Shown piece by piece: positions 4,659 to 60,653 of a DNA stretch of 64,000 bases. Numbering within the stretch: position 1 is the stretch's first letter; each line of letters starts with the position of its first letter. A program made the position numbers and the translations under genes. The notes under the pieces are model-generated. The model saw only the letters and a list, made by a program, of their open reading frames with translations, searched no databases and was not told the origin of the DNA. The DNA is from an uncultured Candidatus Saccharibacteria bacterium (lineage in GTDB: Bacteria > Patescibacteriota > Minisyncoccia > Phycocordibacterales > UBA2100): contig CAYTFU010000002.1 in assembly GCA_964437185.1 (NCBI GenBank), positions 41,296 through 105,295 of the forward strand. The letters run 5' to 3'.

Positions 4659-5660
4659 GTGAATACTCAAAATCACGGTATTCTGAGTAGTGTGTTTCCG
4701 CATACACGGCTGCGCCGTTTGAGAAAAACTGAGGCACTGCGAACGCTAACCCGGGAGCAGAGGCTTTCTATCGACGATTTGATTTATCCGATTTTCGTCG
4801 AGGAAAATATACAAGCCCCTATTCCAGTAGAGACGATGCCTGGCGTGTTTCGAATTCCGGAGAGAAATCTAGACGATGAGGTGCGAGCGATCGCATCAGA
4901 TGGAGTGAAAGCAATTATGATGTTCGGTGTCTCGCACAAAAAAGACCCCACGGGAAGCGATTCTTTGAGTCAAAGCGGTCTCATGGCGCGCATGATTAGG
5001 TGCGCAAAAAAAGCGGCTCCAGAGATGATCGTGATTTCCGACAATTGCTTTTGCGAATACACTGATCATGGACATTGCGGCGTAGTTCGTGACGGTTATG
5101 TGGACAACGACCTTTCGATTAAAAACCTAGCGCGTCAGACTGTCGTAGCTGTCGAAGCTGGCGCCGACATGGTGGCGCCCTCTTCGATGTTGGACGGCCA
5201 AGTACAGGCGATTCGGCAGACGCTCGACGCAGCGGGCCATGGCGACATCCCGATTATGGCGTATTCTACGAAATTCGCTTCCTGCTTTTACGGTCCTTTT
5301 CGCAACGCCGCGGGATCAACACTACAAGGCGACCGAAAAACCTATCAGATGGATCCCTCGAACACTCGAGAGGCAATACGAGAATCCTTGCTAGATGAAA
5401 GCGAGGGCGCGGACATTCTTATGGTAAAGCCTGCACTTCCGTATCTCGACATTCTGTCGAAACTGCGAAAACGAAGCCTATTACCAATAGCCGCTTATCA
5501 AGTAAGTGGTGAATACGCAATGATCAAATTTGCTGCCCAAGCTGGTGCCATTGATGAGCGGCGCGCGGTACTTGAAACGCTCGGGGCGATACAAAGAGCT
5601 GGTGCCGATATTATTCTCACATATTTTGCTCGTAGTCTCGCTCGAGAAGGTATCATATGA
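4659..5660 (+). CDS. hemB: porphobilinogen synthase (ALA dehydratase)
   Basis: RLRRLRK N-terminus, [18 protein letters not shown] and [10 protein letters not shown] motifs. GTG start; an alternative GTG lies at 4692. Confidence 0.92.
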
Positions 5661-5706
5661 ATAATGCCCGTTATGTACTGAATGATCGAAGGGAAAAGCA
5701 GCAATA

Positions 5707-6612
5707 ATGAAAACAATTCTGATTAAAATTGGTTCTCGTGGAAGCGAACTTGCACTTAAGCAAACAGATATCGTATTCGCGGCGCTTAAGGCAGCGGACC
5801 CATCTGTTTCCGTCGAGGTGCACGTAGTCCAAACACGCGGCGACGTTGACCAGCAACCGATTCCTCTCGACACCATAGGCAAGGGGTGGTTCACGAGAGA
5901 AATAGAAGATGAGCTTTTGCGGGGTGAAATCGACATCGCTGTGCATAGTCTCAAAGATATGGCGGAAGGCATGCCGCCGGGCCTCATGATTGGAGCATAT
6001 CTTCCGCGTGAAGACGCGCGCGATGTTCTTATTACAAAAAACGGCGTGTCATATCAGGAATTAAAGCGGGGAGCAATAATCGGTACCGACAGTTCGCGCA
6101 GGCAGGTACAAATGCTTGCCCTCCGACCTGACGCACGGATGAAAAGCATACGCGGGAATGTGCCGACGCGTCTCCAAAAGCTACAATCTGAAGAATACGA
6201 CGCAATTATTCTTGCTGCAGCGGGTTTAAAACGTCTTGGAATGGAAAAAAAAATCACTCATTATTTTGCCTTGACGGATATCATTCCAGCGCCCGGGCAG
6301 GGAATTCTTGCCGTACAAACACGAAGGGACGACACCGAGTTGGAACAAATACTCGCGCGAATCAACGATCTTGAGGCGGCGCAAGCGGCAACTTTGGAGA
6401 GATTGTTCTCGCGTACCGTCGGAGGCGGATGCAAAGCTCCGACAGGAGCCTACGCCGTAAAGGGACCAGAAGGATGGACATTGACGGCAATGATTGCTGC
6501 AGCAAATGGCCGAATCATCCGGGGAGAAATGAGTACCCAATTAGATGGCGATTTTCAGATCGGCCAACAGCTCGCGAAGAGTCTTCTTATTACCCGTGAT
6601 GCGGAAAAATAA
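5707..6612 (+). CDS. hemC: hydroxymethylbilane synthase (porphobilinogen deaminase)
   Basis: IGSRGSELALKQT, AVHSLKD, RGNVPTRL and GGGCKAP motifs. Confidence 0.92.
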   Translation: MKTILIKIGSRGSELALKQTDIVFAALKAADPSVSVEVHVVQTRGDVDQQPIPLDTIGKGWFTREIEDELLRGEIDIAVHSLKDMAEGMPPGLMIGAYLPREDARDVLITKNGVSYQELKRGAIIGTDSSRRQVQMLALRPDARMKSIRGNVPTRLQKLQSEEYDAIILAAAGLKRLGMEKKITHYFALTDIIPAPGQGILAVQTRRDDTELEQILARINDLEAAQAATLERLFSRTVGGGCKAPTGAYAVKGPEGWTLTAMIAAANGRIIRGEMSTQLDGDFQIGQQLAKSLLITRDAEK

Positions 6613-23727: not shown

Positions 23728-24216
23728 ATGGACCTCAATGCGTGGTCAAGCGTTCTTTCGTCGTGGCCGCACGACTGGATTCTTATCGGCGGCATCGCAA
23801 TTTTCGTCTCGCTCGACGCGATGCGCTCTGGCTCTGCCCGCGCGGCGTCGATCGCGCTAGCCTTGCCTGCAACTCTTTTTGCCTTCAACGCAATTCCTCA
23901 GGCTTATTTTTTGGGGCCATTGCTCGCTGAATACACCGCACCAATTGTCCACATTGTTTTATTTGTCGTGTTCTTCGCACTCATTTTTTTCACTACATAT
24001 CGTACCGTCTTTGGCGCATCGGATGGGGGGCGGGTCTTACAATCGCTCCTCATCGGCCTCGCGGCCACGGCCGCTATTGTGCTCGTATGGATTCAGGTGC
24101 CAGCTCTTGAATACGCATGGCATTTTGGCGACCAAGTGCAGGCCGTCTTCGCCCCTGCGCTTAGGCTGTGGTGGTATGTCGCAATTTTCACTTCGCTTGC
24201 GTTTGCGCGGAGTTAA
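23728..24216 (+). CDS. hypothetical polytopic membrane protein
   Basis: 162 aa with 4-5 hydrophobic helices. Its last 19 codons are repeated at 25775-25834. Confidence 0.6.
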   Translation: MDLNAWSSVLSSWPHDWILIGGIAIFVSLDAMRSGSARAASIALALPATLFAFNAIPQAYFLGPLLAEYTAPIVHIVLFVVFFALIFFTTYRTVFGASDGGRVLQSLLIGLAATAAIVLVWIQVPALEYAWHFGDQVQAVFAPALRLWWYVAIFTSLAFARS

Positions 24217-24259: not shown

Positions 24260-24667
24260 ATGGTAGCCAATTTTACACTCACAGAAACTCAACGATCGGC
24301 TATTGAAAAGCTTGGCGTTGTCCTTTTGTATCTACATGGCTCGGTGGCTGCTGGCACCGCGCGCGCAAACAGTGATGTAGACATTGCTGTTTTATTTGAA
24401 ACTACGCCGCGGGACTCGATTAGCGCGACGACCGCGGTCACGGAGGCTCTACGCGGATTGGTACCGCAACGTGAGATGGATATCGCCATACTCAATGAAG
24501 CAAATCCGCTGCTGAAACAAATAGTCGCCTCGACCGGCAATCTCCTGTACGCGCGTACAACTGACGACGCATTGAAATTTGAGCTGCGCGCCATGCACGA
24601 TTACGAATATTCTCGCCATGTCGTCCGTCTGGGGCAGGAACTTATTTTGCGCAACGTGAGCGTATGA
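24260..24667 (+). CDS. minimal nucleotidyltransferase (MNT-type antitoxin)
   Basis: LYLHGSVAAGTARANSDVDIAVLF (GSx10-ish DxD pol-beta NTase motif). ATGA overlap with the downstream HEPN gene. Confidence 0.8.
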   Translation: MVANFTLTETQRSAIEKLGVVLLYLHGSVAAGTARANSDVDIAVLFETTPRDSISATTAVTEALRGLVPQREMDIAILNEANPLLKQIVASTGNLLYARTTDDALKFELRAMHDYEYSRHVVRLGQELILRNVSV

Positions 24668-25095
24668 CCGAATTTTCTCGAGAATTACTCATGGGCAAAT
24701 TGGTGCAGTGCAGCGAGGCACTCACCGATCTGCAGCGATACCGCGAGGTCGGAACTTTGGATTACCTGCGCGACCACCAGGACATATATTACGCTGTATG
24801 TTATCGGTTTATCGGTGGCATCGAAGCCTTATTTGATGCTGGCCAAATAATTCTGGCGAGCCACGGACAGCATGCAGCCGGTGACGGCGACATACCCGTA
24901 CTTCTTGGGCGAAGGAAAATTATATCTGACGAGCTGGCTAGTGCATTCACCAATATGTACGGTTTTCGCAATCGGCTGGTGCACGCCTACGGCACGCTCG
25001 ATGATTCCAAGGTGGCCGAGTACCTTCAGAGGCATCTTGTAGATATCGAGGAGCTTATCAGTGTATTTCGAGACACGGTGACAAGCTCGGAGTGA
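24664..25095 (+). CDS. HEPN/DUF86 domain protein (HepT-like toxin)
   Basis: RNRLVHAYGTLD (Rx4-6H HEPN motif) near the C-terminus; paired with MNT. Confidence 0.8.
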   Translation: MTEFSRELLMGKLVQCSEALTDLQRYREVGTLDYLRDHQDIYYAVCYRFIGGIEALFDAGQIILASHGQHAAGDGDIPVLLGRRKIISDELASAFTNMYGFRNRLVHAYGTLDDSKVAEYLQRHLVDIEELISVFRDTVTSSE

Positions 25096-25128
25096 AGGCG
25101 AATGAGGATCAGATAGTAAATAGTCATT

Positions 25129-25608
25129 ATGGGGGAGATCGAGATACAGTCCTTGGTGGCTGAGGTCGATCGGGAGGCGGTAGAGTTTTGCCGCGAGATT
25201 TATTCTGAAATGGGATGGCCTGAACATGCCCTAGGTTCAAGCGTCGCGGCACTATTCAGTGAACCTGGTGATGCTTTTGTGACCATCAAGCAGGCCGGAA
25301 AAATTATCGGTACCGGTGGTTTTCTACGACTCTCAAAAGAAGAAGCGGTATTAAAAAGGTTTTACCTCGCAAAACATGTACGCGGTAGTGATCTCGCGCC
25401 GCGATTATTTGCCGATCTCGTAGATAGGGCGCGAGTCATTGGGTACTCCGTGCTCCTTGTGGATGTTTCTTCAACCAACGTACGTGCGATACGATTCTAT
25501 GAGAAGGAGGGTATGAAGGAGTTTTTTGGTGTCTCACCCCACCCGCGCTGGGAAGGATCCTCACCCGAAAGGCAGAAAACTGACCGATATTTTCGCTTAA
25601 AACTCTAA
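25129..25608 (+). CDS. GNAT family N-acetyltransferase
   Basis: 159 aa with the pattern LAKHVRGSDLAPRLFADLVDRARVIGYSVLLVDVSSTNVRAIRFYEKEGM (acetyl-CoA binding motif A region). Confidence 0.75.
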   Translation: MGEIEIQSLVAEVDREAVEFCREIYSEMGWPEHALGSSVAALFSEPGDAFVTIKQAGKIIGTGGFLRLSKEEAVLKRFYLAKHVRGSDLAPRLFADLVDRARVIGYSVLLVDVSSTNVRAIRFYEKEGMKEFFGVSPHPRWEGSSPERQKTDRYFRLKL

Positions 25609-25774: not shown

Positions 25775-25834
25775 GCACTAAGACGGTGGTGGTATGTCGC
25801 AATCTTCACTTCGCTTGCGTTTGCAAGAAGCTGA
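25775..25834 (+). pseudogene. orphan 3' fragment of a diverged allele of the 23728-24216 membrane-protein gene
   Basis: Encodes ALRRWWYVAIFTSLAFARS-stop versus ALRLWWYVAIFTSLAFARS-stop. Of 10 nt differences, 9 are synonymous or stop-to-stop. Confidence 0.6.
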
Positions 25835-28274: not shown

Positions 28275-29792
28275 ATGAGGAAATTCAAAACGGTCTTCGA
28301 GCAGTTGCCCACGCCCGTTAGCATCGCCGTTTTGCTCGTCATAATTGTGATTGTTATTACCACCTCGTGGACGCTATACAATCACACGGTCGACATTCTC
28401 ACGCAGAATTTAAGAGACCGTTTGCAGACTATCTCTGTTACCCAAGCGGCCAATGTCGATGCCTCGGATATTGAGGCACTTCAGGTAGAGGAGGATTGGA
28501 AAAAACCAGAGTGGGAACATCTGGTAAGTAAATTGCACAAAGCAAAGTACAGTAATGGTCAAATTGTTTTTATATACATTTTCCGAAAAACCAAGGATGA
28601 CCCGACCAAAATGGAATTCGTTGCAGACGCTGATTCAATTGACCCATATGCAAACATTAACAATAATCCAACCGGAGAAATAGTTTCCGCATCAACATGC
28701 CCTTTGTGCGTTGACTCCAACAGAGATGGAAAAATCGACAGAGAACATGCTGATAGGCTGCAGTGGCCCGGCATGCTGTTCCCCGAAATAGAAGGTGTGC
28801 CGGAAGCTTTTGCGGCATATAACGGCCCGATTACTGTGCCGGATATTTACACGGACGAATACGGCTCAGTTCTTACGGGCTTTGCTCCCATCACAAACGC
28901 AAGCGGGACTGTCGTAGCGATTCTGGGAACCGACATAAAAGCCGACGACTTTCTCACAATCACAAGGCAGACGCTGTATCCGTTTCTTGCGTTTATCGCC
29001 GCGCTGACGCTGATTATCGCCGTTTTGGCGGCATCGCTCATTTATATTTGGTCTCGACGTGCAAACATGTTAGCAAGACTTTCGCGTAGCCTAGAAATAG
29101 CTAATGCCCAGCAGGAAGGCCTTTTGCACTTTATTAGTCATGAGATCAAGGGCTACCTTACCAACAGCGAAGCAGGGTTTGCTTCCATCGCGGAGGGGGA
29201 TTACGGAGAGGTTACCCCTCAATTGAAAACCATGGCCACAAGCGCCCTCGCGAATGTCCGCAGGGGAGTGAGCACGGTGGTCGACATACTTCGTGCGGCG
29301 GATATGAAGCGAGGCACGGTCTCGTACAGAAAAGACCCTGTCGACGTGCGAGCGGTCGTCGAGAATGTTATCAACACACTTCGACCAAACGTCACAGAAA
29401 AAGGCCTAACTCTCGAGACCAACATCGCAGATGGGTCGTACACCACCTCGGGCGATGAGGAGAAACTTCGCAACAACGTCCTCCGCAACCTCATCGACAA
29501 CGCCATCCGATACACGCCGACCGGAACGATTACCATCAGCCTTTCCAACGCTGGCGGTACAATACGTTTTTCGGTAAAGGACAGCGGTGTCGGAATTACT
29601 GAGGAGGATAAGAAGCGATTATTTACTGAGGGTGGGCACGGCAAAGAATCCATAAAAACCAACGTCCATTCCACCGGCTACGGCCTCTTTATCGCAAAGC
29701 AAGTAGTAGACGCCCACGGCGGCAAAATCTGGGCCGAATCGGAAGGGGAGGGCAAAGGCTCCACGTTTGTTGTAGAGCTCCCCACTGCATAG
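28275..29792 (+). CDS. sensor histidine kinase with periplasmic Cache-like sensor; no adjacent response regulator
   Basis: Two TM helices, H-box FISHEIKGYL, N-box NLIDNAIRYTP, and DSGVGI...GYGLFIAKQVVDAHGG. TATAAT at 28264-28269. Confidence 0.9.
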   Translation: MRKFKTVFEQLPTPVSIAVLLVIIVIVITTSWTLYNHTVDILTQNLRDRLQTISVTQAANVDASDIEALQVEEDWKKPEWEHLVSKLHKAKYSNGQIVFIYIFRKTKDDPTKMEFVADADSIDPYANINNNPTGEIVSASTCPLCVDSNRDGKIDREHADRLQWPGMLFPEIEGVPEAFAAYNGPITVPDIYTDEYGSVLTGFAPITNASGTVVAILGTDIKADDFLTITRQTLYPFLAFIAALTLIIAVLAASLIYIWSRRANMLARLSRSLEIANAQQEGLLHFISHEIKGYLTNSEAGFASIAEGDYGEVTPQLKTMATSALANVRRGVSTVVDILRAADMKRGTVSYRKDPVDVRAVVENVINTLRPNVTEKGLTLETNIADGSYTTSGDEEKLRNNVLRNLIDNAIRYTPTGTITISLSNAGGTIRFSVKDSGVGITEEDKKRLFTEGGHGKESIKTNVHSTGYGLFIAKQVVDAHGGKIWAESEGEGKGSTFVVELPTA

Positions 29793-29806
29793 TAGAATGC
29801 GTTGGT

Positions 29807-30055
29807 ATGTTGACGAACAAAGATATAGACAAGATGATAAAGGTTTTCGCTACTAAGGAAGACATCCGGAGCGTCACCGATAGACTCGACAGGCTGGAAT
29901 CCTTGGTTCGCGGTCTTCTAACTGGGGTGGACAAACTCGCGACGAGTGTCGACAAATTGCTTTTGGAGTATGCGGCAGTCAGCGAACAACTTACGCGCCA
30001 CGAGAGGTGGATCAAACAAATCGCAAAAAAGTCTGGCGTGATGCTCGCGGACTAG
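29807..30055 (+). CDS. small coiled-coil protein, family member A
   Basis: 82 aa. The C-terminal EYAAVSEQLTRHERWIKQIAKKSGVMLAD aligns with the ORF at 60378-60653. Confidence 0.65.
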   Translation: MLTNKDIDKMIKVFATKEDIRSVTDRLDRLESLVRGLLTGVDKLATSVDKLLLEYAAVSEQLTRHERWIKQIAKKSGVMLAD

Positions 30056-30085
30056 CAGTGCATTAGACTTGATTCTTTTCTATAA

Positions 30086-30175
30086 AAAGTAGACACTCGC
30101 AAGTGCAAAATCTGGGCCGAATCGGAAGGGGAGGGCAAAGGCTCCACCTTCATTGTCGAACTTCCCGCAGCTTAA
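30086..30175 (+). pseudogene. orphan 3' fragment of a diverged histidine-kinase allele
   Basis: Reads KVDTRKCKIWAESEGEGKGSTFIVELPAA-stop versus the HK C-terminus VVDAHGGKIWAESEGEGKGSTFVVELPTA-stop. A 43-bp core is identical (30105-30147 = 29722-29764). Confidence 0.65.
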
Positions 30176-30207
30176 AATATCGACGATTTTCTGCTATCAT
30201 AGGTCGC

Positions 30208-37079: not shown

Positions 37080-37108
37080 TTGACGATATGACATACAATG
37101 TATATCAT
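37080..37108 (+). promoter_or_regulatory. promoter with overlapping imperfect palindrome (candidate BrnA operator)
   Basis: TTGACG, 17 nt spacer, TATCAT. A 21-bp near-palindrome ATGACATACAATGTATATCAT (37088-37108) spans the spacer and the -10 box. Confidence 0.4.
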
Positions 37109-37118
37109 ACAGACATCC

Positions 37119-37382
37119 ATGAAGTTCTTTGAATGGGACACCCGAAAGAACGAGTGGCTTATTAAAAATCGTGGGATCTCGTTTGAGATGTGCATCACGT
37201 GCATAGAGCAAGGGCACCTGTTGGCCGACACCTACAACGAACCGGCCCGTCCGCTCCAAAGGGTGTTTATTATCAACATTGAGGGATATGCGTATAAGGT
37301 GCCATACGTAGAGGATGAGGAGAAGATCTTTCTCAAAACAGCCTTCCCAAGTCGAGACGCAACGAGACAGTATCTGCGCTAA
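37119..37382 (+). CDS. brnT: BrnT-family (DUF497) ribonuclease toxin
   Basis: MKFFEWDTRKNEWLIKNRGISFE N-terminus characteristic of BrnT. An alternative ATG lies at 37098. Confidence 0.8.
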   Translation: MKFFEWDTRKNEWLIKNRGISFEMCITCIEQGHLLADTYNEPARPLQRVFIINIEGYAYKVPYVEDEEKIFLKTAFPSRDATRQYLR

Positions 37383-37400
37383 ACATCGCATAACACAAAT

Positions 37401-37664
37401 ATGAAGCCAAAAAATAACGTGCGACTAACCAAAGAAGAGCGGGAGATGGAGGCCGCATTTGCACGCGGAGAGTACAAGTCCATGCCGAATTTTAAAGCAG
37501 CGAAGACGCAGTATGAGGCTGCGGCACGTTATACGCTCACAAAAACACGCACCATCACGGTACGCATGACCGAGCGTGACATGATGCGACTCAAAGCAGC
37601 TGCCGCCCGCGAAGGCCTGCCGTATCAGACGCTCATTACCTCCATCCTGCATAAGCATGTGTAG
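37401..37664 (+). CDS. brnA: BrnA-like antitoxin with C-terminal ribbon-helix-helix
   Basis: 87 aa. ITVRMTERDMMRLKAAAAREGLPYQTLITSILHKHV is a CopG/RHH pattern; lies immediately after brnT. Confidence 0.78.
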   Translation: MKPKNNVRLTKEEREMEAAFARGEYKSMPNFKAAKTQYEAAARYTLTKTRTITVRMTERDMMRLKAAAAREGLPYQTLITSILHKHV

Positions 37665-38928: not shown

Positions 38929-40272
38929 ATGAGTATCGTTAAGGTGCGTTTCCCACCGAGCCCGACGGGCTATTGCCATGTCGGCACCGCTCGAATGGCG
39001 ATTCTTAATTATTTATTTGCGCGAAAACACGGCGGGAGCATTGTATTTCGCAGCGAGGACACCGACAAGGAGCGCAGCCGCGCGGAGTACGAAGACGACA
39101 TTCGAGAAAGTCTTAGCTGGCTCGGACTTTCGTGGGACGAGTTTTATCGCCAGTCTGAGCGCACCCACGTATACACTACCGCGCTTCTACAACTCATCCG
39201 CGAGGGGAAAGCATACGTCTCCGAGGAGGAGAGTAAAAAAGAACCTGGCGTACGCGTGCGTCCGGTACGACTCAAAAACCCGGGCACCGTTATCACGTTT
39301 GCAGATGAGATCCGCGGTGAGATTACGTTTGATACGGCAGAACTCAAAGATTTTGTCATTGCGCGCTCGATCAACGATCCGCTGTATCACCTTGCAGTGG
39401 TCGTCGACGATCACGATATGGGGATCACGCACGTGATTCGCGGCGAAGATCACATCTCAAACACACCTCGGCAAATTCTGATTCAGGAGGCGCTTGGATA
39501 TTCGCGGCCCGTGTACGCGCACTACCCGCTGCACCTTTCAGCAGACAGAGCGAAGCTCTCTAAACGCACGGGCGATGTGGCCGTCCGATCGTATCGAGAA
39601 AAAGGATACCTGTCCGGAGCACTACTCAATTACCTCGCGACACTTGGCTGGACGCCACCATCGGGTAGGGAGATATTGAGTCTTGATGATATGGTCAGCG
39701 AATTTGAACTCAAAGACGTGCACAAAAGCGGGGCAATTTTCGATCTCGAAAAGTTGCGCTGGTACAACAGACACTACTTGCACGAACTTTCACCCGGAGA
39801 ATTTGCCGCAGAAGCGTCGATTATCCTCTCCGAAGAAATGCACACTCGCGGTATTACGGTCACAGACGACCTTGTACTAAAATTATGGCCGATTATACGC
39901 GAGCGAATAGGCGTGTGGGAGGATTTGCGTGAGGCGATTCGCGATGCCGAGTTTGATTTCTTTTTCAAAGACCCGGTATTGGATTCCGCCCGTATATCGC
40001 AAAAAGGAGTCGAGCCAAACGTGACGCTGAAGCACCTCGCCGCTTGTGCGGAGATGCTGACCTCTGTCACCGAGGAGGATTTTACCGAGTCACACATCAA
40101 GGATCGGCTGTGGCCCTACGCAACATCAGAGGGTCGCGGGGCTGTTTTATGGCCGCTACGATACGCGCTCTCGGGCCTCGAAAAATCACCGGACCCCTTT
40201 GTAATCCTCGGGATCATAGGGAAAGAGACGGCACTGAGGCGTATTGAGGCAGCTCGATCGCAGCTTGTATGA
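38929..40272 (+). CDS. gltX: glutamyl-tRNA synthetase
   Basis: RFPPSPTGYCHVGTAR (HIGH), THVIRGEDHISNTPRQ and KLSKR motifs. Confidence 0.93.
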   Translation: MSIVKVRFPPSPTGYCHVGTARMAILNYLFARKHGGSIVFRSEDTDKERSRAEYEDDIRESLSWLGLSWDEFYRQSERTHVYTTALLQLIREGKAYVSEEESKKEPGVRVRPVRLKNPGTVITFADEIRGEITFDTAELKDFVIARSINDPLYHLAVVVDDHDMGITHVIRGEDHISNTPRQILIQEALGYSRPVYAHYPLHLSADRAKLSKRTGDVAVRSYREKGYLSGALLNYLATLGWTPPSGREILSLDDMVSEFELKDVHKSGAIFDLEKLRWYNRHYLHELSPGEFAAEASIILSEEMHTRGITVTDDLVLKLWPIIRERIGVWEDLREAIRDAEFDFFFKDPVLDSARISQKGVEPNVTLKHLAACAEMLTSVTEEDFTESHIKDRLWPYATSEGRGAVLWPLRYALSGLEKSPDPFVILGIIGKETALRRIEAARSQLV

Positions 40273-41564
40273 ATAGAGGACTCGCCGTTATCTCGGTACT
40301 CTGCGTACTGCTGTGCTTACCGTCCAATTCCTTCGCCCAAAATGCGCCTGCCTCAGAGGAGCGCATCAACTCCTTACAATCGCAGATTGACACCCACAAA
40401 TCTGAGATCGAAAAAATTGACCGGGAAATTGCGCAATATCAACAGCAGCTTGACGCTGTCGGGACCAAAAAGAAAACACTTCAAAACACACTTTCGCAGC
40501 TGGATCTTCAGATAAAAAAAGCGACTGCGTCGATAAACGTCACAAAAAATAAAATTAGTGCAACGCAGCTCGAAATTCTCCAGCTTGAGAAGGGAATTGC
40601 AGGCAAAGAAGTTTCTATCGAAACGGGGAACCAGGGCCTGCGAGAGTCCCTGCGTCGACTCAATGAGATTGGAACCAATCCTCTTGCAGTGCAAGTGCTT
40701 TCCTCAATCGACATCTCCGAAGCGTGGGAAGACGCGGACGCTATTCAAGAACTCCAAGTGGCAGTGCGCGATCAAATCGCACGACTCGCTTCGGAGAAAC
40801 AATCACTCACGGAGACAAAAAACCAGACCGAGGCGAAGCGCGCGCAATTGGTGAAGCAAAAGGATACTCTGCTTGCGCAGCAAGGCTCGCTCACGGCTCA
40901 AAAAAAGGCGCAGAACGAGCTTCTCGTTCAGACCAAATCACAGGAATCCACCTACCAATCAATTTTGAAACAAAAACAGGCGGCAAAAGCCACGTTTGAA
41001 GCAGCGCTTGGTGATCTTAAAATCCAGTTCCAGAGAGCTATTAGGCCCTCGGAAATTTTGGCCGCCGGAAAGGGGATATTGCGCTGGCCGCTCGACAACG
41101 TGCGCATCACACAGCAATTTGGAAACACCGCCTTCGCGGCTTCTGGTGCATATAATGGCAAGGGACACAACGGCATCGACCTCGCCGCTCCCGTCGGCAC
41201 ACCGCTGAGAGCGGCTCTTAATGGCGTAGTTTTGGGGACGGGCAACACGGATAGCATAAAGGGCTGCTACTCATTTGGACGGTGGGTGATGATTAAGCAC
41301 CCCAATGGGATCAACACCATGTACTCGCACCTCTCCCAAATCAACGTTGCAGAGGGCCAAAACGTCGATACAGGGCACATAATCGGCTACAGCGGGGAAA
41401 CGGGCTATGCCACAGGCCCACACCTTCACTTCGGCGTGTACGTCAGCTCGGCAACGGCAATCATTCGCCTCGGCGCCGCGAGCAATTCGACCACCCCGTG
41501 CTCAAACGCCGTCATGCCCGTCGCACCCCTATCGGGATACTTAAATCCGATGAATTATCTCTAG
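40269..41564 (+). CDS. M23 family metallopeptidase with long N-terminal coiled coil (EnvC-like)
   Basis: Signal peptide, about 250 aa coiled coil, then HNGIDLAAPVGTPL and GYATGPHLHFGV. Confidence 0.88.
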   Translation: MNRGLAVISVLCVLLCLPSNSFAQNAPASEERINSLQSQIDTHKSEIEKIDREIAQYQQQLDAVGTKKKTLQNTLSQLDLQIKKATASINVTKNKISATQLEILQLEKGIAGKEVSIETGNQGLRESLRRLNEIGTNPLAVQVLSSIDISEAWEDADAIQELQVAVRDQIARLASEKQSLTETKNQTEAKRAQLVKQKDTLLAQQGSLTAQKKAQNELLVQTKSQESTYQSILKQKQAAKATFEAALGDLKIQFQRAIRPSEILAAGKGILRWPLDNVRITQQFGNTAFAASGAYNGKGHNGIDLAAPVGTPLRAALNGVVLGTGNTDSIKGCYSFGRWVMIKHPNGINTMYSHLSQINVAEGQNVDTGHIIGYSGETGYATGPHLHFGVYVSSATAIIRLGAASNSTTPCSNAVMPVAPLSGYLNPMNYL

Positions 41565-41597
41565 TACCGAGATACTCCTAACCTGAAATGAGTCTAG

Positions 41598-41620
41598 CCC
41601 CGTGGTGAAAACGCACGGGG
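41598..41620 (+). terminator. hairpin in the 55-bp spacer between the two M23 3'-end copies
   Basis: CCCCGTG-gtgaaaacg-CACGGGG. No U-tract. Confidence 0.3.
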
Positions 41621-41664
41621 TCGCACCCCTATCGGGATATCTAAATCCGATGAACTATCTCTAG
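41620..41664 (+). pseudogene. orphan second copy of the M23 peptidase 3' terminus
   Basis: 45 bp, 42/45 identical to 41520-41564 and exactly 100 bp downstream. All 3 differences are synonymous; both encode VAPLSGYLNPMNYL-stop. Confidence 0.6.
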
Positions 41665-41695
41665 TGGGGCGGAGCCTGCTTGTAATACAGTTCGC

Positions 41696-41735
41696 CTGAC
41701 ACTAACTCTAGCCGATGGCGTGAAGTTAGTGTCAG
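41696..41735. repeat. perfect 12-bp inverted repeat with 16-nt loop
   Basis: CTGACACTAACT...AGTTAGTGTCAG in a noncoding stretch. Confidence 0.6.
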
Positions 41736-41765
41736 TGTGCACCAAGTATAAGATGTGAAATAGAT

Positions 41766-41790
41766 GAGGCGGCACCGCGGGTGCCGCCTC
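41766..41790 (-). terminator. GC-rich 11-bp stem hairpin downstream of the 75-aa ORF
   Basis: GAGGCGGCACC-gcg-GGTGCCGCCTC. On the minus strand it is followed by atctaTTTcac. Confidence 0.45.
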
Positions 41791-41802
41791 ATTGAGGGAA
41801 GA

Positions 41803-42030
41803 TCAGCCATCAGATATGGACTTCAGCGCACCAAGATTGATTGGACCTCGGTGACCTTCTATCCACGCTGAATCATTTTGAATTTTGGTGATTTTCCCCC
41901 TTACGCCTGGATCGTATATGGATTGCACCAGCATTCCAATAGCAAACTTCTCACCGAGCTGACCAGTAGATTGAAGACCCGGAATTCTGCCGCCAACGTT
42001 GACTGGTGCCCACGGTCGAAATGTAGACAT
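41803..42030 (-). CDS. hypothetical small protein (75 aa)
   Basis: ORF with a downstream hairpin; no recognisable motif. Confidence 0.4.
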   Translation of the reverse strand: MSTFRPWAPVNVGGRIPGLQSTGQLGEKFAIGMLVQSIYDPGVRGKITKIQNDSAWIEGHRGPINLGALKSISDG

Positions 42031-42089
42031 GCGTTACCCCCAAAAGAACAAGTGACGATTATCACACAGGCAAGTGGATTTTTCGAGGG

Positions 42090-42740
42090 TCATATTTTCT
42101 TTCCACGCTTGGACCACTCAGTTGTTTTCATGGCGCGCAACTCGACAGGCGCTGCGCGACGTAATGTGCGTAGATTTTTTTTGGGAGCGACAGGGAAGTG
42201 GCGCGAATCGTCAAGAGCCTGTACGAGCCAAGTCAGTTCTTTGTCAGACGTAACCCAACGACTGGGTGTAAATTTTGAGAGATCATACGGTGCCGAATAT
42301 TCCCGCAGCGACTTCTTTCCATTCCACTCTAAATATTCGTGAAAATATGACATCGCAAGCTCGCGCGGCGACGCGTACACTGGATCTCTGTACCGAAGAA
42401 TCGAGTGATTGGTCTTCGATATCGCGCCCCAGCGACCGCCTTGCATAAATAATGCGACGACGTGATCCTCGTCTGTCGGCGCTGTTCGAAAATCCATTAA
42501 CAACGGCGGGGCACCATGGTACGCGAGTGCTGCGGCAGCCAAAAGGGCACCCTCAAAGCAGTGAGCAGTATTTTGCTCGATAACTCGTCTCGGCGACATG
42601 TATGTCTCGCCCGAGATCTCGAAGTTTATTGGGAGCGTGTCCAAGAAATCCTGAATTTTAGTGGGTGTCGACAATTTCGATAGCAGCGAGCGCTCGAGGG
42701 GAAGAAGGATAGACCGCAGGGTGTCACGATACGTGGCCAT
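42090..42740 (-). CDS. hypothetical protein with papain/transglutaminase-like Cys-His signature
   Basis: 216 aa with QNTAHCFEGALLAAAALAYHG (Gln-x4-Cys) followed by DEDHVVALF. Fold assignment is tentative. Confidence 0.4.
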   Translation of the reverse strand: MATYRDTLRSILLPLERSLLSKLSTPTKIQDFLDTLPINFEISGETYMSPRRVIEQNTAHCFEGALLAAAALAYHGAPPLLMDFRTAPTDEDHVVALFMQGGRWGAISKTNHSILRYRDPVYASPRELAMSYFHEYLEWNGKKSLREYSAPYDLSKFTPSRWVTSDKELTWLVQALDDSRHFPVAPKKNLRTLRRAAPVELRAMKTTEWSKRGKKI

Positions 42741-53138: not shown

Positions 53139-53426
53139 TTATTTAATTGTTAAACGTGCCTCTATGCGAGATATCCGCTTATCGTGTTGAAAAACTGCTT
53201 CTGCATCCTTATCGACAGCCTTCGAAATAATCTTTACTTCACGAACAATCTCGTCAATCTTTTTTAACTGACCATTAGTACTAAAAGCCCTTTCAATCAT
53301 CCTCTCAACATCATTTTTTGTTGGCAACTCTGCCACCTGCTCTCCCAGAGAAACAACCGCCTTCAATACCGACCCTAGCGATGCCTTCGGCTTTACCATA
53401 AAGGAATGGTATATCGCCCGAAACAA
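53139..53426 (-). CDS. small coiled-coil protein, distant family member B
   Basis: 95 aa (or 86 aa from the internal Met). Heptad-rich, and ...AVDKDAEAVFQHDKRISRIEARL resembles the A/C core. Confidence 0.5.
   Translation of the reverse strand: MFRAIYHSFMVKPKASLGSVLKAVVSLGEQVAELPTKNDVERMIERAFSTNGQLKKIDEIVREVKIISKAVDKDAEAVFQHDKRISRIEARLTIK

Positions 53427-59001: not shown

Positions 59002-60653
<1,652 letters not shown>

Follow-up and report, generated by a model that had tools for sequence, protein, structure and literature searches.

A displaced second copy of an M23 peptidase gene end in a Patescibacteria genome, possibly a recombination scar between two haplotypes

We describe a short duplication at the 3' end of an M23 peptidase gene in a 64-kb stretch of DNA (the window, by which we mean the whole stretch analysed) that comes from a genome of the Candidate Phyla Radiation (CPR), or Patescibacteria, near Kaiserbacteria. 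The gene (40269–41564, + strand, taken from the list of open reading frames (ORFs)) is intact and encodes 431 amino acids; it was identified by the Pfam family PF01551 on an identical protein, and its C-terminal motif, MPVAPLSGYLNPMNYL followed by the stop, is kept in relatives. Its last 45 nt, the functional last 14 codons plus TAG (41520–41564, +), form the first copy of the repeated tail, and the second lies on the same strand at 41620–41664, a start-to-start offset of exactly 100. An earlier note on this DNA had reported the repetition 100 bp downstream and had called the differences silent; recomputation gives the same 42 identical positions out of 45, with no indel, and translation agrees that the three differences (tac/tat, tta/cta and aat/aac), all of them synonymous transitions, leave both copies encoding VAPLSGYLNPMNYL-stop. 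The match runs one base beyond the stop codon, to 46 nt, and its longest identical run is 20 nt, while the chance expectation for such a match anywhere in the 64 kb is approximately 3e-12.

The second copy is a displaced, non-translated remainder of the M23 gene end: its reading frame is closed by an in-frame TGA 12 codons upstream and offers no convincing start. It is most likely a relic without a function of its own, situated within a long and structured 3' untranslated region (3'UTR).

Between the two copies lies a 55-nt spacer (41565–41619, +), which we read as the truncated 3'UTR of one haplotype. Its first part (41565–41597) ends in the rare pentamer TCTAG, and the remainder enters a hairpin, CCCCGTG-N9-CACGGGG (41598–41620, +; -16.9 kcal/mol, z -3.8), that is followed by no T-run, occurs once in the window and marks the junction. 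The earlier note had placed the 3' arm of this hairpin directly against the second copy, and the last G of the hairpin is indeed the first base of that copy. On the opposite strand, the joint creates GGGGTGCGACCCC followed by GTGCGTTTTC (41617–41629, -), a terminator-like arrangement that arises only from the hairpin end abutting the second copy and may be fortuitous.

The sequences that follow the two tails resemble one another. The first tail is followed by CCTGAAATGAGTCTAGCCCCGTGGTGAA (41582–41609, +) and the second by CCTGACACTAACTCTAGCCGATGGCGTGAA (41695–41724, +), the latter inside a further hairpin (41696–41735; -25.6 kcal/mol), so that a stem-loop stands approximately 32–34 nt past the stop behind each M23 tail. 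The composite pattern CCTGA-N5-9-TCTAGCC-N4-8-GTGAA has only two sites in the 64 kb, at 41582 and 41695, one per tail copy; two of the three TCTAGCC sites on the + strand of the window stand behind the two M23 tails, and of its 16 + strand TCTAG sites four (41560, 41593, 41660 and 41707) fall within 152 nt. The tetramer CTAG is itself approximately five-fold under-represented in the window (46 observed against 250 expected), a scarcity that may reflect avoidance of the restriction-modification or very-short-patch-repair type. As a motif is shared after each tail, the repeat unit continues, weakly, beyond the 45 nt and consists of two diverged copies of tail plus 3'UTR in tandem; one alignment pairs 41494–41597 with 41598–41711, spanning the tail and both flanks. 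The two parts of the unit have diverged very differently, the tail by 3 of 45 positions without an indel (93% identity in the coding part) and the 3'UTR by 12 of 41 aligned positions with many gaps (approximately 70% identity; Fisher p 0.009), and the register of the 3'UTR alignment is uncertain. The earlier note had seen no gene in the insert. There is indeed none within the 55 nt of the spacer, but the spacer is not anonymous: it resembles a diverged counterpart of the 3'UTR that follows the second copy. The surrounding 300 nt fold far better than shuffled sequences (z -4.2), which the tail copies alone do not. Farther right, between the M23 gene and a convergent ORF (ORF75), a perfect 13-bp stem with a 3-nt loop (41764–41792; -27.0 kcal/mol, z -7.0) looks like a terminator for both directions.

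Two other gene ends in the window are repeated in a comparable manner. At locus A, the tail of a gene for a 162-amino-acid membrane protein (24157–24216, +) recurs as a relic at 25775–25834, giving a unit of 1618 nt, and the two copies show nine synonymous differences (including cgg/aga and taa/tga) and one non-synonymous difference; its interior (24260–25608, +) encodes an MNT nucleotidyltransferase and a HepT RNase, a toxin–antitoxin pair, along with a GNAT acetyltransferase, and locus A alone among the three has clearly accessory cargo. At locus B, the tail of a histidine kinase gene (29722–29792, +) recurs at 30105–30175 in a unit of 383 nt, where a 43-nt core without any difference (0/43) is succeeded by a segment with 10 differences in 27 positions, mostly synonymous (p 2e-5). 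Pooling the three loci yields 20 synonymous against 3 non-synonymous differences (synonymous divergence pS 0.48, non-synonymous divergence pN 0.023, P 3.6e-10), to which the M23 locus contributes three of three synonymous (P 0.015 on its own), and strong similarity does not continue past the stop codon at any of the three. Alignments of the sequences flanking the tails of loci A and B were not significant (p 0.09–0.5).

The earlier note regarded the M23 repeat as a minimal or decayed version of the two larger loci, which it described as insertions flanked by gene termini. The kinship holds in that all three share one architecture (gene tail, other DNA, displaced tail copy), the boundary at the stop codon and the synonymous bias. 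The description of 29703–30175 as a terminus-flanked insertion fails, given that the order kinase–ORF82–trpS is conserved in relatives: ORF82 (29807–30055, +) is found between kinase and trpS in relatives at 83% and 71% identity, and at 68% identity it immediately follows the kinase gene in another. We accordingly discarded ORF82 as mobile cargo, its synteny with the kinase being kept and viral relatives being absent. What is extra at locus B is the second kinase tail and, after it, a second diverged copy of the motif upstream of trpS (ttttctgctat..). This motif thus occurs twice in 30056–30207, before and after the kinase-tail relic, and a decayed TAGACAC resembling the start of trpS precedes the relic (p ~0.09), which suggests that the first unit at locus B may reach a few codons into trpS.

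The nearest M23 proteins, at the loci termed here L062, L066 and L063, share 80%, 75% and 74% identity with ours. L062 and L063 show a 10-nt tail-to-tail overlap of the M23 gene with a convergent gene for a homolog of our 216-amino-acid protein, a layout that we take to be ancestral; most other relatives have the pair at most a few to tens of bases apart, and two loci have gaps of approximately 140–190 nt. A second M23 tail was not found in any of approximately 65 related loci, and tail duplications of this kind number none in approximately 480 kb of related CPR DNA versus three in the 64-kb window. The duplication forms the left edge of a strain-specific region of approximately 537 nt (41565–42101) that is absent from relatives and comprises, in order, the spacer, the second copy, two strong stem-loops, ORF75 and a new end of the gene for the 216-amino-acid protein; alignment to L062 picks up again only at approximately 42102. 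In that convergent gene (42090–42740, -) the last codons have been rewritten, reading RGKKI-stop against RGTFYK-stop and GGKLYK-stop in relatives. ORF75 (41803–42030, -), to the right of the second copy, is a lineage-specific ORFan: its only match among 5.8 billion proteins was itself, and none was found in the approximately 65 related loci. It shows weak HEAT-repeat-like matches to giant proteins and a codon-usage score of 0.134, like that of real genes, and may represent either a small gene peculiar to this lineage or a fragment. A third tail remnant was looked for at the right end of the strain-specific region and not found. The junction is unstable in other lineages too, since L066 lacks the 216-amino-acid gene and carries instead approximately 477 nt without a called gene (5279–5755 of that locus). 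The relatives' tails are too diverged to decide which of the two copies is native, and sliding identity of the M23 gene against L062, L063 and L066, examined for mosaic breakpoints, is uninformative at 70–78% nucleotide identity.

The interpretation that we prefer, and to which we give about an even chance, is that the M23 duplication is the scar of a recombination in which two diverged haplotypes of this locus were joined out of register. A copy that had been dead since its birth in place should carry mostly protein-changing differences, so the synonymous bias points to divergence as working gene ends; likewise, similarity that stops at the stop codon is expected where coding sequence was conserved while its flanks drifted in separate genomes, and is not expected of a mechanical duplication. 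The differences are thus those of orthologues in both respects, and together they show that the two copies diverged as functional 3' ends in distinct lineages and were joined only later. The divergence of the two 3'UTRs is near the synonymous divergence of the M23 tail (pS 0.27), which fits the joining of two haplotypes, and at locus B the identical core next to a diverged end is the signature of a crossover within a shared identical stretch. Related strains do co-occur in the same samples, since an M23 allele with 74% identity (L064) comes from ERZ27247830, the same assembly that contains a contig matching our locus (L001).

According to this scenario, DNA of a related Kaiserbacteria-like strain would have recombined into the 3' end of the M23 gene. 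One haplotype would have given the working gene end together with 55 nt of its own 3'UTR, up to the foot of the stem-loop (41520–41619), and the other the second copy, its own 3'UTR with stem-loops, ORF75 and everything rightwards; the joint, lying 45 nt before the stop of the second haplotype, would leave 45 nt of coding sequence present twice. The donor type would then read M23 followed by TACCGAG...CACGGGG and other DNA, and the recipient type M23 followed by TGGGGCGG. Two routes can be envisaged. In the first, a single crossover in the conserved tail between the chromosome and a circularized fragment (a Campbell-type integration) would be followed by loss of most of the insert. In the second, recombination would rely on homology within the gene and be illegitimate at the hairpin foot, by homology-facilitated illegitimate recombination or over-copied break repair, and stalling or pairing at the hairpin might, speculatively, explain why the end falls there. 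At most 1–4 nt (G/GGG) could be shared at this 3' foot. The same process could account for the two larger tail duplications in the window, and the single-crossover route would directly fit the 1618-nt and 383-nt units of loci A and B.

Several points weigh against the joining of two haplotypes at the M23 locus. The homology of the two 3'UTRs is weak, with alignments of the flanks alone reaching p 0.03–0.06, and depends mainly on counts of rare motifs that were noticed post hoc. The 22 nt ahead of the second copy resemble the gene 26 nt ahead of the first (15/17, p 0.01), a similarity that could instead mark a longer duplicate, made in place and since decayed. With three differences only, the M23 locus is by itself weak evidence for selection, and it takes pooling with loci A and B, whose origins are possibly different, to reach the strong statistic. 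Neither a donor nor an empty-site strain was found, the closest relative standing at 80% protein identity; neither the polarity nor the event itself is directly seen; and the look-up for strain variants leaves out five collapsed contigs, which we count on this side. As to the routes, a 100-bp circle is implausibly small for a Campbell event, so that an extra deletion is needed, and the one-sided route needs an illegitimate joint placed backward, for which we know of no clear bacterial precedent.

Partial chromosome duplications in merodiploid Streptococcus pneumoniae are far larger and form between long repeats, whereas the M23 locus would represent a 100-nt event with a diverged donor. A study of merodiploid formation during natural transformation in that species (PMC3784515) reports that tandem duplications can arise when donor DNA bridges positions that are not allelic. 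Parallels exist for each route. Escherichia coli constructs with one-sided homology were resolved mostly by a single crossover of a circular molecule, with 109–950 bp of the lacZ end duplicated (PMC3240628); as at the M23 locus, the gene remains whole and its end is doubled as a direct repeat around foreign DNA, but the M23 unit is 100 nt long and a later deletion must be assumed, the donor would be a diverged natural relative instead of a plasmid, and the M23 event is reconstructed from sequence. In Rhs and type VI secretion system genes, 3' ends are proposed to be displaced by homology-facilitated illegitimate recombination, and the old end survives unexpressed downstream (PMC5361080). There too the new gene end is anchored in conserved sequence and the old one pushed downstream. 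In those systems, however, each end specifies a different toxin and the common segment precedes the variable part; at M23 both ends specify one and the same peptide, what they have in common is the extreme 3' end of the gene, and no selective payload is obviously exchanged.

The best of the alternatives, though unlikely in our estimate, is an in situ tandem duplication of approximately 100–104 nt, arising by slippage or unequal crossing-over between the imperfect repeats CCCCGTG.T..AAACGC at 41494 and 41598 and followed by decay of the non-coding part, with gene conversion from the functional copy keeping the second tail similar. The head-to-tail alignment of 41494–41597 with 41598–41711 is what it predicts, imperfect 17-nt direct repeats stand at the predicted unit borders, and four TCTAG sites within 152 nt of a CTAG-avoiding genome could be accounted for in this way. 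The two halves of the spacer are also weakly and collinearly similar to the end of the M23 gene (p 0.002 and 0.01). Such a duplicate should have diverged evenly, which the contrast between the tail and its indel-rich 3'UTR does not fit, and its second copy would have been neutral from birth, so that differences which are all synonymous require the added gene conversion. Tandem Repeats Finder sees no array; the continuation of the gene expected at the junction, CGTCATGCCC, finds no match in the ACGGG present there; and loci A and B are not simple tandem duplications, the second unit lacking the genes of the first.

We consider it unlikely, to much the same degree, that the repeats are attachment (att) sites left by a site-specific integrative element, in which a tyrosine or serine recombinase would have generated attL (the first copy) and attR (the second) around an element since decayed to 55 nt, similar to a cis-mobilizable element (CIME). 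Integrative mobilizable elements (IMEs) and CIMEs have att direct repeats at the 3' ends of genes, and integrase-less remnants and tandem accretion are documented (PMC5704250); the M23 locus shares with them the direct repeats of which one completes the target gene. Here, 45-nt direct repeats do flank additional DNA, the first copy completes the M23 reading frame, and synonymous differences would fit an element carrying the tail of its former host; moreover, the MNT/HepT and GNAT genes of locus A are typical accessory cargo, and more strain-specific DNA lies directly to the right of the second M23 copy, as accretion would give. However, a Pfam scan of the sister-locus cargo and of ten unannotated ORFs from the window finds no integrase, transposase or recombinase, no conserved element is present, and no element sits in the M23 tail of the approximately 65 related loci, as recurrent use of the site would lead one to expect. 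The three targets share no motif by inspection, so at least three specificities would be needed, and at the three repeat borders no convincing recombinase motif is common to all, the shared hexamer GTCGCA being within our estimate of chance. The spacer is like a resident-type 3'UTR and not element DNA, the DNA to the right is not closed off by a third tail copy, and the supposed cargo of locus B is a conserved resident gene. The footprint after loss of cargo that the earlier note had suggested is possible, although nothing requires such a history.

A miniature inverted-repeat transposable element can be discarded. The earlier note had proposed a search for such behaviour, but the spacer (allowing up to three mismatches) and the hairpin are both single-copy in the window, and neither has a copy in the approximately 480 kb of related CPR loci, in viral contigs or in phage and plasmid records. 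The spacer has no terminal inverted repeats at its ends and only one hairpin, and the 'duplication', at 45 nt and diverged, is unlike a short target-site duplication.

That the second copy, or its surroundings, is a functional element (a regulatory 3'UTR or small RNA, a template or decoy, an alternative gene end or a small ORF) strikes us as very improbable. The good folding of the 300-nt region and the freedom of the second copy from indels would suit such a role; against it, the tail copies fold no better than shuffled ones, the arrangement is absent from all relatives, and the upstream in-frame stop and want of a convincing start close off translation. No RNA family was recovered at the Rfam gathering threshold across the window or at E up to 5 in 41450–42150, and a tRNA/tmRNA scan was likewise empty. 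A diversity-generating retroelement (DGR) is also rejected, as the differences are silent C/T changes instead of the adenine-specific, protein-changing DGR pattern and no reverse transcriptase occurs among the ORFs scanned.

The structure is reproduced outside the assembly in which we studied it. The 501 bases of 41400–41900 are identical in a MEGAHIT k141 contig of ENA assembly ERZ27247830 (L001) and in a single-run Logan contig of ERR3094293 (L002), both from other data sets; the two sister loci were recovered at 100% in ERR3094292, ERR3094294 and ERZ27247820/30; and every contig returned by exact-protein look-ups with the M23 protein, the 216-amino-acid protein, EamA and TrpRS shares the same structure. 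Identical runs at the M23 locus do not exceed 20 nt, below any k used, from which we infer, by the logic of de Bruijn assembly, that k-mers across the joint between spacer and second copy must be in the reads. An artefact in which an assembler or scaffolder concatenated two co-occurring strain alleles, while in keeping with the strain-like synonymous changes, the co-occurrence of related strains in the same samples and one Logan contig that breaks off within the identical 43-nt core that the kinase tails share, is scarcely credible in view of those junction k-mers and of an identical structure at all three loci in graph assemblies made independently from different runs and samples.

Other features of the window deserve brief mention. 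Nearly all genes left of approximately 41.6 kb are on the + strand and most of those beyond it on the - strand, and cumulative GC skew peaks at approximately 32–34 kb; the junction between the M23 and 216-amino-acid genes may be near the replication terminus. Despite this strand switch and the nearby skew maximum, a dif/Xer site was rejected as an explanation, a search for ATAA-N6-TTATG yielding nothing nearby and no excess over chance. ORF82 has a paralog with 40% identity, a 91-amino-acid coiled-coil ORF (ORF91; 60378–60653, -) between atpG and atpD, and a Kaiserbacteria relative (L082, 3001–3276) carries the same 91-amino-acid gene in the order atpA–atpG–117-amino-acid ORF–ORF91–atpD–atpC. 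This ORF82/ORF91 family comprises approximately 70 clusters, all from Kaiserbacteria or Parcubacteria, with no Pfam family over threshold; ORF91 is a conserved small protein, possibly tied to the ATP synthase. A 95-amino-acid ORF (53139–53426, -) with a similar coiled-coil pattern, an H-[DE]-x-[RW]-I motif and 15% identity may be a distant third member. Between ftsW and murG lie two small ORFs (37098–37382 and 37401–37664, +) that by eye form a BrnT/BrnA-like pair. In L063 and L066, ftsW and murG are adjacent, and the site in the window has no gene-tail duplication; accessory genes therefore also enter this genome without that signature.

The M23 relic is most likely an ordinary scar of a generally known kind and not a new mobile element. 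Somewhat notable is the number of such scars, three in 64 kb of one CPR genome against zero in the related DNA that we examined. CPR bacteria presumably take up DNA. A broader proposal, that this CPR lineage has an unusually active, integrase-independent DNA uptake anchored in the last 15–25 codons of conserved genes, is in our view a long shot; fragments acquired by competence would be circularized and integrated by single crossover, each leaving a gene-tail repeat, with the M23 locus as the smallest product. Were it true, past horizontal transfer could be read from tail repeats in organisms where recognizable mobile elements are few.

For annotation, such relics call for caution, as one could take them for miniature transposons, DGR template repeats or assembly errors. 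For the organism, the relics would mark recombination with fairly diverged relatives (synonymous divergence 0.27–0.6) at conserved gene ends, three times in 64 kb, and one of the three events would have brought in a toxin–antitoxin pair and an acetyltransferase. In CPR bacteria, genomes are tiny and recognizable mobile elements few, and a simple signature that dates and locates DNA imports could aid studies of gene flow among them.

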